Shown here: positions 35,488 through 48,632 of the stretch, piece by piece
How positions within the stretch are numbered: position 1 is the stretch's first letter
How the letters are laid out: each line of letters starts with the position of its first letter
Source: a virus
Lineage: Duplodnaviria > Caudoviricetes
Length of the DNA: 62,241 nt
Direction: 5' to 3' (one strand)
Virus record (IMG/VR): IMGVR_UViG_3300031857_000175
Coordinates: 1-62,241 of that record
The notes under the pieces: generated by a model
Seen by the model: only the letters and a program-made list of their open reading frames with translations
Told to the model about the DNA's origin: nothing
The model's database searches: none
Made by a program: the position numbers and the translations under genes

Positions 35488-38400
35488 ATGTTTTTGCGCG
35501 GATGGCGGTGGCCTAGAAAACTTTGGTATTTTTCGGGCGGCATTCTTCCACTGAATGCCACGGTTACGCCTGTTGCAGCAGACGCTATCGGAACGTCCGT
35601 TGGTCGTCCGATGGTCGTCATCGACGACGGCCTCGTCCCTGAGGCCTTTGGGGCAATCGGAACCTCCGTAACGCCCGTCATAAGTATCATCGATACCTTT
35701 TCGCCGCAGACCTCTCCCGCCATCGGCACGTCTGCCTCTCCGACGGTACACGTCTCCGACGTCAGCGTTCCTGAGGTTTCTGACGCAGTAGGCGCACCCT
35801 CGGAGCTGACGGTTCACGTCTCTGACGTGGTCACCCCCGACGCCTCGGACGCAATTGGGTCTTCTGCTCAGGCTCAGGTCGTAGTTTCTGACACCTTCAC
35901 GCCTGACGTTGCCTTCGCGCTCGGCACAGTTTCGAACGTCTTTATCTCAGTCTCAGACTTCGTGGTGCCCGCAACAGCAGACGCCAAGGGTAGTGTGGCC
36001 TACCCGATCGTCATTATCGGCGATTGGATCACGCCCTCAAGCGAGCCCGCCGTAGGGACCGTTGCCTACGCCACGGTTCACGTCTCCGATTCGTTCGACA
36101 CTACCGTCGCAGACGCTATCGGCACCTCCGCCTTGGCTAGGGCCATCGTCGCAGTCTCGCCCGAGACCAGCGATGCCACCGGTACGGTGGCTGTGCCTCT
36201 GATTGCCCTTGCGGTTTCGCCCACCACTACAGCCGCTGTGGGGGCTTCGGGCGAGGAAGGTCTTTTCATCAACGTCACCCAGACGGTTGAGGGTACCCTG
36301 CTGTTCGCAGGGCCTACCCGCATCGTCTTGGGGGCGGCTGCCTTCGCGACCCCGGGCGAGTACGACCTCTTCCGGTACACACCAGGCTCGTTCCCCGGCG
36401 GCCAGGGTGCCCTCGACACGTACGTCACGATCGACACCTCTGCCGTCCCGAACTTCTTCGTCGCCGCCCTGACTGACGATCCTGCCACTGGGCGTGTGTT
36501 CCTGCGCCTGCTGCAGCGCTTGGTTCACGTCTCTGACAGCTTCACCCCTGCGACCTCGGCGGCCGTCGGAACCTCGGCAGATGCCTTGGTGGCCTCTGGT
36601 CTCTCCCCGCAGGCAAGCGACGCAGTCGGTACCGAAGCTACAACGCTGCCGAGCGTTGCCTACTCGCCCTTGGCTGCGGCAGCCCTCGGGACGGAATCCG
36701 TCACCACCGTACACGTCTCAGATGTCTTCCGACCTGAGGCGGCCCACGCTAGAGGAACAGAGTCTTACCCAGTCGTCATTATCGGCGATTGGATCACGCC
36801 CTCTAGCGAGTCTGCGGCCGGCACGTCTGCCAGCCCGACTGTTCACGTCTCTGACGCAGTTACGGTAGAGGTCTCCGACGCCGTCGGTACGGTATCTAAC
36901 ATTCAGATAGGCTCGGCCCTCGTGCCGGGCACGACAGACGCACTCGGCACCTCTACCTCGCCCACGGTGCACGTCTCTGACGTCTACGAGCCCGATGCGG
37001 CTGACGCAGTCGGCACGGTCTCGGACGCCCTTGTGGCGGCTTCCTTCGCGCCCACGGTGTCCGACGCCGTTGGCACGGCAGCCGGGGCAACCGCACACGT
37101 TTCGGATTCCGTAACGCCCGATGCGGTCAATGCCATCGGCACGAGCACTGATGCTAGCGTTGCGCTCGCTCCCACCCTTACGGCAGCTGACGCTTCGGGT
37201 ACGGCGGCCACGCCTGCGGTTCACGTCTCTGACGTGTTCCAGGTCACGACGGCCAACGCCGTAGGCACCGTTTCGTACCCAGCGGTCATCATAGGCGACG
37301 CAGTAACCCCCGAGAGCTACCCGGCGCTCGGCACTTCGGCAACGCCTTCTGTTCACGTCTCCGACGTGGTTACGCCCGATATTACCGACGCTGTCGGCGC
37401 GTCGGCGGATGCTCTGGTTGGAAGCGCGCTCAGTCCAAGCACGTCCGACGCGCTTGGAGTGGCGACTGATGCACTGGTAAGTCTGTTCTTCGTGCCGGAG
37501 GCGCTCGCCGCCGTCGGTACCTCGGCGGATGCTCTCGTGACGGTGTCGGATACCTTCGAGCCCACGGCTGAGAACGCTATCGGCACGAGCGCGAGCGTTT
37601 TCGCAGTTATCTCGTTTATTCCCGCCGTGCAGGATGCCCTCGGGACTGCTTCCGAGACCTCGGTCGTCGTGTCGGATAGCTTCACGCCGGCTGACGCTCA
37701 CGACGGCGTCGGAACGAGCTCTGACGCACAGGTTTCGATCTCTGAGGTCTTCACGCCCACCGTTTCCGACGCGATCGGTACGTCGGAGGACGCAACCTCA
37801 GTCACCTCGAAGACTTTCACGGTCTCCGCTTCCGACGCACTCGGTACTTCTGAATCGGCCATCCCAATGGTCGACGATGCGTTCTCGCCCTCGACTACCG
37901 CAGCCGTCGGTACGTCTGTCGACGCCGTAATCTCGATCTCCGACTCCGCGACCCCCGAGACCTCCGACGCAGTCGGCACCGTTTCTGACACGACGGTTTC
38001 TGTCTCGGTGCGAGTCACCCCCGGAGCTACCGACGCAGAGGGTATGTTTGAGGACGCCATCGTGGCGGTCTCTGACAGCTTCACTCCTGAAGCCCCGAAC
38101 GCCGTCGGAACGGCCTCAGAGGTCACAGCTCACGTTTCCGACAGAGTTACCCCCGAGATCTCTGACGCCATTGGCACCTCGGCCGCAGCGAATATTTCGA
38201 TCTCCAAGATTTACACCCCGAGCACGATGGATGCTAAGGGTACCGCGACCTACCCGGTGGTCATCATCGGCGACTGGGTCACGCCTTCCAGCGAGTCTGC
38301 CCTCGGAACGTCCTCGACTCCGACCGTCCACGTTTCCGACTTCGTCGTGCCTGAAGTCGCCGATGCCCTCGGGACCTCTTCGACGTCCGTGGCGGTGGTC

Positions 38401-46628: not shown

Positions 46629-48632
46629 ATGGCAGACCGGTATTGGAGACTCGCAAGCGGTGGCGTTTGGACTTCAACGGCTAACTGGGCTGCGGTCTCA
46701 GGTGGGGTCGGAGGTTTTACGCCGCCAGGTACCGGCGACAACGCGTTCATCGCCCAGAACATTACCGCGACCGGCACGATCACCGGGATTGGCAGTAACG
46801 TCTCCACGATGCCGGCGTACCTTCGCATCGACGACTTCCCTACGTCGAGCCACGCTTGGATCATCGGAGCTGGCAGTGAATCAATCGTAGTCGCAAACGA
46901 CTTTACGTTTGACCTGCCCGGCGCAGTCGTCTCGGCTACACCTCACAGATGGAGCCCGCGCCTTAACGGAGCAGGGCGCACCATGACCAAGATAGGCTTG
47001 GGCTGGGTCGTGCTCAATGCGCCGAGCGTGGCCTCTCAGCTGGCTTTGATCGTGGTGCGAGATGGTCCGTTTGGCATGTTTCAGGGTTTCGGCGGCACGC
47101 TTGAGATGGGCCACGGGACAATAGCACCCACGGCCAACCTGATATTTGATACCGCTAACTCAACAACTGTCGTCTCCGCGCCGGTTAGGTTCAGGCGAAA
47201 CACGACGATTCAGAACACGGCTGCGACTTTCAAGACGGTCAACTTCACTCAGCCATGCACGTTTGAGCCAATCTCAGGGACGCTGGGGATTGCTCACGCG
47301 AACGGCACCTCGGTCACCTTTAGCGGCGGGTGTAGCTTCAAGGGCAACACTTCAATCGGGTATACCGCAGGAAGCTCGTTCTTTTTCTCCGGAGCCGTTG
47401 ACTTTACAAGCGCAAGCCCGTTCACTTTTGCGAACACAGGTAACGCGCTCACGATTTCTGGAAGCACGACTTTCAACACAAACGTGACGCTTTTTGGCGG
47501 GGGCGGCAGCCAGTTTTTTACCGGCTCGGTTGCACTTGGTGACGCCAGGTCACTAACTATCCAAAGCAACTCCGTCTCGATGTCTGGGACCGTGTCCGGC
47601 ACTGGTGGGATTACGACCTCGGCGACTCTTGGAAAGACTTACGGCCTGTTCCTTACTGGTAACTCATCAGGCCTTTCTGGGCCTTGCACAATCAATTCTG
47701 GGTCTTTGCAGGTTGCCGCAACAAACCGGTATGAGCCGACAGCACTCAACGTTGCGGGCTCCACCTCACGCTTCTTTTACACGTCCGGGTCGGCTGACTT
47801 TAACTTCCCAGTCAGCCCTACCGGGGTTGGTGGTGTCGTCATTCGGGGCAACTTTGCAGGGTCAGGGGTCACCTTTCCGGCGTCAGGTCCCGGGAGTGTT
47901 CAAGGGTTCGCCGGCTCGCTTCAGGCAATCGCCCTTTCAAACGCCACAAACAATAACTCCAAGCTCGTCACTCATCACTTGCCTCAGCAGTTTTGGTTGA
48001 GCGGCGCTGCATTTGCCACCGGCTTTTCTCTGACGCCTTCAATCACTTATGTCGGCGCAGGCGAGACGAGGAACACAGACGTCATCATTGACTCAGAGAA
48101 CAACGCTCAAACGGCTGTCTTGTCGTCGGGGGTGTACACCCTTGCGTCGTCTGGGGCTGACGCCATCGTCCTGACTGGGGGCGTTCAGCGCACTAACAGC
48201 GGGGTGAACGCGTCAGCTCGGATGACCCTCACGCTTGCTGGCACGAACACAGACGCTAACACCATCTCCGGTCCGGTTACTGAAGTTGGCACGAATAGCG
48301 CGACGCTGGGGTTGGTCAAGAATGGCACCGGGTACTGGGCCCTGTCCGGGGCCTTGAGTCACACGGGCCCTACCACGGTGGAGCAGGGCAGCCTCCGCCT
48401 TGAGGCGATGAGCCACGACAACACGAACACGGGCAACATCTCCGTCGCCACGGGCGCCGTGCTTGAACTGGTCACCTCGGCGGCGACCCCGCGCCGAGTC
48501 ACGGGCACAGGCAACGTCACCGTTAACGGTACGCTGCGCGCGGGTGCCTCGGGCACCGGCACGGGAACAGCCCGCTACGGTGGTGGGCTGACCTTTAACA
48601 CCAACTCGGTACTCGAACTTGGTGCTGCCTAA
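46629..48632 (+). CDS. PATR adhesin 3, no beta-barrel
   Basis: LVKNGTGYWALSGALSHTGPTTVEQGSL. Long segment paralogous to adhesin 1 (SGPCTxNSG...ASARMxLTL...EVGTNSA). Ends RYGGGLTFNTNSVLELGAA. Confidence 0.85.
   Translation: MADRYWRLASGGVWTSTANWAAVSGGVGGFTPPGTGDNAFIAQNITATGTITGIGSNVSTMPAYLRIDDFPTSSHAWIIGAGSESIVVANDFTFDLPGAVVSATPHRWSPRLNGAGRTMTKIGLGWVVLNAPSVASQLALIVVRDGPFGMFQGFGGTLEMGHGTIAPTANLIFDTANSTTVVSAPVRFRRNTTIQNTAATFKTVNFTQPCTFEPISGTLGIAHANGTSVTFSGGCSFKGNTSIGYTAGSSFFFSGAVDFTSASPFTFANTGNALTISGSTTFNTNVTLFGGGGSQFFTGSVALGDARSLTIQSNSVSMSGTVSGTGGITTSATLGKTYGLFLTGNSSGLSGPCTINSGSLQVAATNRYEPTALNVAGSTSRFFYTSGSADFNFPVSPTGVGGVVIRGNFAGSGVTFPASGPGSVQGFAGSLQAIALSNATNNNSKLVTHHLPQQFWLSGAAFATGFSLTPSITYVGAGETRNTDVIIDSENNAQTAVLSSGVYTLASSGADAIVLTGGVQRTNSGVNASARMTLTLAGTNTDANTISGPVTEVGTNSATLGLVKNGTGYWALSGALSHTGPTTVEQGSLRLEAMSHDNTNTGNISVATGAVLELVTSAATPRRVTGTGNVTVNGTLRAGASGTGTGTARYGGGLTFNTNSVLELGAA

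Follow-up and report, generated by a model that had tools for sequence, protein, structure and literature searches.

In the IMG/VR virus record IMGVR_UViG_3300031857_000175 (Duplodnaviria; Caudoviricetes), we identified a fibre locus at positions 35488-48632 in which one long repeat protein, P0001, bears four copies of a predicted beta-rich module and is followed by three PATR-family proteins that share a nearly invariant C-terminal end. The entire record of 62,241 bases (linear, CheckV estimate 88%) was analyzed and is called the window below. What we observed is a domain family to which the module belongs, an unusual polarity of conservation in the PATR proteins, a linkage of module and PATR genes, and natural fusions of the two. 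We lean towards a docking or branching role for the module, with the invariant end of the PATR rods as its partner. We infer a physical contact between rod and module, together with its geometry and stoichiometry, as the most likely form of this pairing.

A myovirus-like phage would use the products of this locus as its distal apparatus for host recognition. P0001 would be a long repeat shaft that shows the module at two lateral places (copies M1 and M2) and, at the tip, in an A-B tandem (copies M3 and M4). The three downstream PATR beta-helix proteins would be receptor-binding rods with varying N-terminal halves, and their invariant last ∼35-45 residues, the final rungs of the helix, would bind the module. 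Rods would then be attached to the fibre both terminally and laterally.

The fibre protein and its module family

P0001 (1682 amino acids (aa); 35488..40536, + strand) is built from the four modules and ∼60 shaft repeats, each 20-22 aa long (A.G[TSAV] matched 62 times at that spacing), and gave no match in Pfam, PHROG, NCBIfam or a PDB sequence search. Modules M1 (36253..36519, aa 256-344) and M2 (38509..38769, aa 1008-1094), both of type A and, like the other two, on the + strand, have AVGASG on one side (aa 250 and 1002, respectively) and LVHVSD (M1, aa 345) or LVYVSD (M2, aa 1095) on the other, and therefore lie inside a repeat unit of the shaft. A related fibre protein (P0108, 1497 aa, 37% identical) shows a clean 84-aa gap at the M1 site. 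The C-terminal tandem is made up of M3 (40060..40308, aa 1525-1607, type A) and M4 (40309..40533, aa 1608-1682, type B), with which the fibre protein ends; M3 is preceded by a single 'W.GPD..L.GG.W' repeat (window about 40000-40060). A preliminary description of this DNA had already recognized four related modules in the 1682-aa protein, the first two in mid-repeat, and every string that it quoted was located in the expected place, with module starts at aa 265, 1017, 1532 and 1615 (window about 36253, 38509, 40081 and 40330). Local hidden Markov model (HMM) domain E-values of the four modules ranged from 1.8e-29 to 8.5e-43. Identity to M1 is 76% for M2, 39% for M3 and 24% for M4, and 14 columns are invariant across the four copies, which are evidently homologous. 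A different shaft with the same C-terminal tandem, built from several dozen ∼20-aa 'W/Y.GPD.ALDGGTF' repeats, was seen at L008:6808-9654 and also on contigs L014 and L018; the single repeat ahead of M3 in P0001 is of this kind.

A profile of the four copies was searched against 1.84 billion representative proteins and matched 109 clusters at E ≤ 0.001, of which 58 remained at ≤ 1e-10 and 9 at ≤ 1e-30. Sorted by length, the clusters comprise 47 of ≤ 115 aa with one module, 43 of 160-205 aa with two modules, 12 of 206-600 aa and 7 above that size. Stand-alone small proteins account for 90 of the 109, and 89 of these 90 start with Met. The core of the profile reads Q.V.G.L.F.G.T...L....G.Y.LF.Y, within a module of ∼85 aa, and is matched by the four P0001 copies. 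The double form is an A-B tandem in which type A ends with a ...DD..N.R..L.L strand and type B with ...G..IKVTL. An AlphaFold2 model of the window tandem (mean predicted local distance difference test score (pLDDT) 91.8, predicted template modeling score 0.78) is mainly beta, with one helix per module.

Foldseek searches with the tandem model returned no hit at E ≤ 0.001 (best E 2.1 in PDB and 0.056 in BFVD), and PDB sequence searches with module alignments found nothing. When 39 module proteins were compared with Pfam (E ≤ 10), there was no consistent hit and no Pertactin/AC_1 model (PF03212, PF18883). The feature look-alikes of the module in the ESM Atlas were unnamed small-protein clusters (0.93 and 0.92); pertactin-type clusters scored 0.82-0.86, below the lead threshold of 0.9. 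We concluded that the module is a real, undescribed domain family of ∼85 aa that is predicted to be beta-rich.

A double module was also found at the N-terminus, the usual anchor place in phage receptor-binding proteins, of ConA-like lectin proteins of >1100 aa (L017:5378-8731, L019:2481-4679 and L020:563-4078), in which the lectin domain matched Laminin_G_3 at 7.3e-10 and 1.1e-08. Free double modules stand behind non-PATR fibres in L015 and L022, and both contigs stop there. A genome scan with the double-module alignment gave one contig (L022) of a metagenome-assembled genome (MAG), which ends inside the module gene; among 401 genomes of that MAG's order, the module was present in one, the MAG itself. 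No relatives of the L020 lectin protein, or of the fused protein P0163 described below, were found in the viral-contig scans.

PATR rod proteins and their C-terminal end

The three PATR beta-helix proteins are encoded downstream of P0001 on the + strand: P0002 (850 aa, 40548..43100), with a variable N-terminal and a conserved C-terminal half; P0003 (870 aa, 43113..45725); and P0004 (667 aa, 46629..48632), which ends with ...LTFNTNSVLELGAA. All three matched PF12951 above the cut-off of 27 bits (P0002 63.3 bits, E 2.1e-17; P0003 41.5 bits, E 1.4e-10; P0004 35.1 bits, E 1.4e-08) and TIGR02601 above its cut-off of 19.85 (59.4, 44.9 and 35.5 bits, respectively). Nothing besides PATR/TIGR02601 was found for them in Pfam/NCBIfam, and they are therefore without a barrel (PF03797), a PEP-CTERM tail or a Por tail. 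Pfam models of autochaperone or pertactin-type regions (PF03212, PF18883) gave no hit in P0001-P0004 at E ≤ 0.1. No signal-peptide-like N-terminus was seen in P0002-P0004 by a hydropathy scan, a crude measure only (within the first ∼50 aa, no stretch of 10 residues had a mean Kyte-Doolittle value above 1.24). These results bear out the earlier statement that the three proteins have neither signal peptide nor barrel nor sorting tail. The PHROG search gave no matches for any of the three. In contig L014 (8752-11312), the PATR gene is split into two overlapping frames (8752-10395 and 10389-11312), by a frameshift or an assembly error.

It had also been claimed that the three proteins stop at a common point, and their ends are indeed as quoted. 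P0002 has ∼50 relatives of the same length (43-96% identity), and the common end motif, of the type ...RYGGNLTF...IGAAA, was found in 49 of 50 of them (P0005-P0054). In a 37-row alignment, column conservation was 0.41-0.58 over the first 450 residues, 0.67-0.87 in the C-terminal half, and reached 0.89 in the final 45 residues, compared with a mean of 0.60 for everything before them. The last 45 codons of P0002 (42963..43097, + strand) encode this near-invariant end, which is the proposed docking element. P0040 is 44% identical overall and 98% identical at the end; P0003 and P0002, both encoded in the window, share 29% identity over aa 1-805 and 78% over the last 45 aa.

At the codon level, the conserved end differs between the window and L008 by 6 synonymous and 1 non-synonymous changes, and the last 21 codons of P0002 and P0003 differ by 5 synonymous and 4 non-synonymous ones. 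Since synonymous differences are present within the conserved end, the conservation (selection) acts on the protein. Phage receptor-binding proteins usually have a conserved N-terminal anchor and a variable C-terminus. The polarity of the predicted rods is the reverse, with a variable N-terminal half and a conserved C-terminal end.

Gene linkage, natural fusions and alternative readings

A tandem-ended fibre gene is followed by a PATR-family gene in 8 of the 8 contigs that have downstream DNA (window, L008, L009, L010, L013, L014, L016 and L018; about six lineages, not eight independent ones). The PATR gene follows immediately in seven of them, and in L010 it comes after a homologue of the small protein s112 (see below). 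Stand-alone single modules are followed by a PATR or PATR-like gene in 3 of 3 viral contigs (L024, L025 and L026; two lineages), which brings the module-PATR adjacency to 11 of 11 contigs overall where it is visible. The cassette of tandem and PATR gene was found on two unrelated shafts, one of A.GTS..VHVSD repeats and the other of W.GPD.ALDGGTF repeats. The tandems of L008 and L014 are 87-91% identical to that of the window, and the shafts are without similarity.

Counted over whole records, there are three PATR open reading frames (ORFs) in the window, two in G002, and one each in G001 and G003. Loci with the tandem only have one PATR ORF each (G001, G003 and L014). Among five complete related loci, M1 and M2, and likewise the pair of P0004 and the small protein s159, were found only in the window and G002. 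The fibre proteins of these two are 92% identical; because the window and G002 are such close kin, the internal modules and the extra PATR genes amount to essentially one evolutionary event. The copy numbers are compatible with putative sockets at the tip and on the sides of the shaft, though they are not one-to-one.

In some proteins, PATR rungs and modules were found in a single chain. P0163 (821 aa, PF12951-positive) has a PATR-like start, a rung ...GGNLAFGAGSLLRF, a linker of ∼10 residues and then the A-B tandem. This PATR-A-B arrangement is shared by P0204 and P0205, also PF12951-positive, the only proteins beyond P0163 that a targeted search gave. The fragment P0183 consists of a rod end followed by one type-A module (PATR-A). 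By BLASTP, residues 779-844 of P0002 aligned with residues 576-638 of P0163 (42%, E 7e-07), where the module starts at ∼649, and residues 745-849 aligned with residues 68-172 of P0183 (37%, E 7e-06), where the module starts at ∼175. The module of P0163 and P0183 thus begins 5-10 residues past the P0002 stop. Since the end of P0002 aligns just ahead of the module in both proteins, the split point is the fusion junction.

A third form was seen in L024 and L025, in which a free type-A module gene is directly followed by a gene for a 756-aa PATR protein (10290-12557 in L024; Pfam PATR, 1.5e-06) that ends in a rung and a type-B module (domain E 6.5e-12). Beyond the PATR-B protein, both contigs encode a second rod, whose free end reads ...GNMSFGAGTVLRFGAPA. 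In L024, the second rod at 12576-14330 starts like a PATR protein, gave no Pfam hit and has the free end ...FGAGTVLRFGAPA, and a 642-aa protein at 14826-16751 gave a sub-threshold match to YadA_stalk (E 0.0013).

PATR end, A and B are therefore known in four arrangements: PATR-A-B; PATR-A; A with PATR-B; and fibre-A-B with PATR, as in the window. By domain-fusion logic, this variety of fused and split forms is the strongest argument that PATR end, A and B make up one unit. Joining of module and rod by read-through or frameshifting was considered and rejected, as the gene order is module then rod, opposite to the fused order. DNA-inversion switching was also rejected, given that all genes are on one strand; no invertase search was made.

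The preliminary description went further and regarded the locus as a bacterial passenger split at its cap. The first part of this claim stands, in that the PATR proteins end at the fusion junction. The second part, that the module is a bacterial cap or autochaperone, was left unsupported by Pfam (no hit), Foldseek (0 hits) and hhalign. The underlying pattern of a rung followed by a cap is visible by eye in bacterial PATR relatives and lies in the expected register, but it is statistically weak (hhalign P 0.005-0.009, probability 5-7%). The module HMM found nothing significant in bacterial PATR relatives (0 of 42 and 0 of 9). A search with the P0002 C-terminus returned 9 bacterial PATR proteins, and neither the module nor the end motif was present in any of the 9.

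A bolder version of the docking reading, which we would call rather unlikely, takes PATR end, A and B as one structural unit that is cut variously in nature. In this locus the terminal unit would have moved onto the shaft, and each rod would be finished, capped or clamped in trans by a fibre socket, giving a non-covalent plug-and-socket joint with a C-terminal anchor.

The pairing of the PATR end with the module was also examined by complex prediction, using our own alignments and partners with pLDDT ≥ 78. P0002 aa 640-850 with P0001 aa 1500-1682 scored 0.53 (runs 0.53, 0.61 and 0.28), and the best of three controls scored 0.00. Of 80 solved complexes, 58 attain the passing mark of this score, as do 2 of 110 mismatched pairs; passing scores of 0.60 or under came from only 7 of the 80 solved complexes and from both passing mismatches.

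Several findings weigh against docking of the rods on the modules. The complex that the preliminary description had envisaged does score above its controls, but the tool's calibration grades the result as 'weak support', no interface was returned, and run-to-run contact agreement was at least 0%. The AlphaFold model of the fused P0163 has a mean pLDDT of 66, with pLDDT <50 over residues 547-642; since these residues are unmodelled, the model is uninformative on packing in cis. The four modules of the window recur in the close relative G002/L009 alongside two PATR ORFs, so that of the co-occurrence and copy-number matching once expected, the adjacency (11 of 11) is upheld and strict matching of copies fails. 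A module with no visible PATR partner, a situation that had been named as evidence to the contrary, was encountered on the lectin-type proteins: a PATR-family gene is present in 0 of 3 contigs (L017, L019 and L020), of which only L020 has much downstream DNA. The MAG with the stand-alone double module has no PATR match either; this MAG is incomplete and its contig ends in the module gene. Lastly, s112 and s137/s159 are co-inherited with the PATR genes and could be real adaptors.

Some of these observations would suit a module that acts as an independent domain for binding or decoration, such as a glycan-binding tip, with the free PATR proteins anchored via the baseplate or via s112/s137/s159 and their C-terminus serving that contact. 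The module occurs in proteins of many different architectures, among them ConA-like lectin proteins that bear it at the N-terminus and whose contigs show no PATR gene, and most of its family clusters (90 of 109) are stand-alone small proteins. Yet split PATR proteins ending exactly at the fusion junction, the three fusion/fission arrangements of PATR end, A and B, and PATR as the next gene in 11 of 11 cases are all left unexplained by an independent domain, and the tandem model has no known carbohydrate-binding neighbour (Foldseek against PDB and BFVD, 0 hits at E ≤ 0.001). We consider this explanation unlikely, even with the constant presence of s112 and s137/s159 beside PATR genes (s112 is 95% identical between the window and L008) and the differing numbers of sites and PATR genes in G002 in its favour.

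The PATR C-terminus could instead be conserved for internal reasons, as a folding nucleus of the beta-helix or as a recombination boundary for N-terminal swaps, and not for docking. In autotransporter passengers, the C-terminal part acts as a folding nucleus. Conservation in the rods rises gradually across the C-terminal half (0.67-0.87 from aa 450) and not at the tip only, and the s112 gene, itself highly conserved, lies directly beside the conserved end, as is typical of mosaic boundaries. The synonymous changes within the conserved end, however, indicate selection at the protein level and not recent DNA exchange, and paralogues in one genome are 29% identical overall, yet 78% at the end. 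A folding nucleus alone predicts neither the linkage to the module nor the fusions, and we find an internal cause improbable. That the PATR proteins are non-virion products (soluble adhesins or enzymes set free at lysis, their place beside the fibre gene being incidental) is very improbable: although none of the three has a PHROG match, their genes lie between baseplate and lysis genes on the same strand and 12-15 bases from their neighbours, and the linkage to fibre modules is kept across several lineages.

Gene setting, known systems and implications

Upstream of the fibre gene, proteins encoded at 23851-27238 matched baseplate PHROGs (phrog_975, 2.4e-14; phrog_6, 2.6e-27), and an amidase/endolysin-like protein is encoded downstream at 49313-50044. 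With baseplate genes and an amidase/endolysin-like gene on either side, the locus is at the usual fibre-gene position of a myovirus-like phage. All genes of the region are on the + strand and spaced by 12-15 bases. Megablast of window positions 30000-50000 against GenBank phages gave no match. The 347-aa protein directly upstream of the fibre (33327-34370) looks by eye like a short right-handed beta-helix with G/N/T-rich rungs and has no PHROG match. An HNH endonuclease (phrog_1872, 1.2e-19) is encoded at 51627-52280, between the lysis region and the following gene block.

Three small proteins accompany the PATR genes on the + strand. The s112 protein (45738..46076, phrog_18037) is found beside PATR genes in all related loci and is a possible chaperone or adaptor. 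The s137 protein (46101..46514) is a member of the conserved cassette, and its paralogue s159 (48751..49230) comes after the third PATR protein; both belong to phrog_644, a group of unknown function. In the ESM Atlas, s137-like proteins fall into large clusters made up of viral proteins only (275 members). A lead from the ESM Atlas (0.86) to the podophage GP4 fibre I protein gp80, with PF23140 on 23% of the members of that cluster, was rejected for s137/s159: PF23140 was not matched anywhere in the window at E ≤ 1.

Rods docking on shaft modules would have their closest counterpart, in working principle, in Klebsiella podophages. In the report on KP32, K11 and KP34, a branching domain on the first receptor-binding protein (RBP1) and a conserved docking peptide on the second (RBP2) are described, and RBP2 without its first 29 residues is no longer used (PMC13352976); PMC6872550 is a further paper on these systems. 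In that system as well, a dedicated domain on one protein receives a second receptor-binding protein via a short conserved segment, and the remainder is variable and exchangeable. The docking peptide of the Klebsiella phages is N-terminal (29 residues) and the branching domain is T4 gp10-like, whereas here the segment is C-terminal and the module is without a Pfam, PDB or BFVD match. A conserved N-terminal docking peptide is absent from the rods (conservation 0.41-0.58 in the N-terminal half vs. 0.89 at the C-terminal end). Here, unlike in the Klebsiella system as described, there would be several receiving sites along a repeat shaft. The interaction was demonstrated experimentally in the Klebsiella phages; in this locus we infer it from genes.

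Also close in principle are the tailspikes TSP1-4 of Ackermannviridae phage CBA120, which are reported to form a branched tailspike complex (PMC8825819, PMC11414711). In both cases several beta-helix receptor-binding proteins would be held by one scaffold protein, giving wider host recognition. The assembly domains of the CBA120 complex are reported to be in the N-terminal parts of trimeric tailspikes, and the present rods differ in being of PATR type, presumably single-stranded helices, with the conserved part at the C-terminus.

The passengers of type Va autotransporters, such as IcsA, consist of PATR repeats and a C-terminal autochaperone. The rods resemble them in the PATR repeat beta-helix and, in the fused relatives, in a C-terminal element after the last rungs. 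Unlike in type Va autotransporters, the rods have no signal-peptide-like start and no beta-barrel, and the module has no Pertactin/AC_1 Pfam match or PDB-fold match. The locus is not an autotransporter. The closest cellular relatives of the rods are barrel-less PATR proteins of Verrucomicrobiota/Planctomycetota with PEP-CTERM tails (P0055-P0094 and P0206-P0214; E down to 3.5e-27), in which a 'G.w.LidW'-type segment, in register with the module, comes after the last rung. These are secreted proteins with signal peptides and sorting tails, unlike the phage rods.

In the joints of the T4 long tail fibre (gp34-gp35-gp36-gp37), separate polypeptides are joined end to end via conserved termini, and in chaperone-usher pili a strand supplied by one subunit completes the beta-structure of another (donor-strand complementation). 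Neither has a sequence or fold relation to this locus, for which strand complementation is the boldest reading. Our literature searches found no paper on PATR proteins in phage fibres. Compared with the known branched systems, the putative receiving domain without known relative, the C-terminal anchor and the several sites on a repeat shaft would be new.

If the plug-and-socket joint is real, a single shaft would bear exchangeable adhesin rods both terminally and laterally, and the module family (109 clusters, mostly free proteins of ∼95 or ∼180 aa) would serve phage fibres as a general connector that is so far undescribed. Should the docking reading hold, it would bring a new docking domain family without structural precedent, a C-terminal anchor, the opposite of the textbook N-terminal one, and a repeat shaft with both lateral and terminal attachment sites. 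The naturally fused and split proteins provide a ready test set for the recognition of beta-helix ends. Branched receptor-binding complexes set and widen the host range of phages, and they are handles for re-targeting phages and tailocins.

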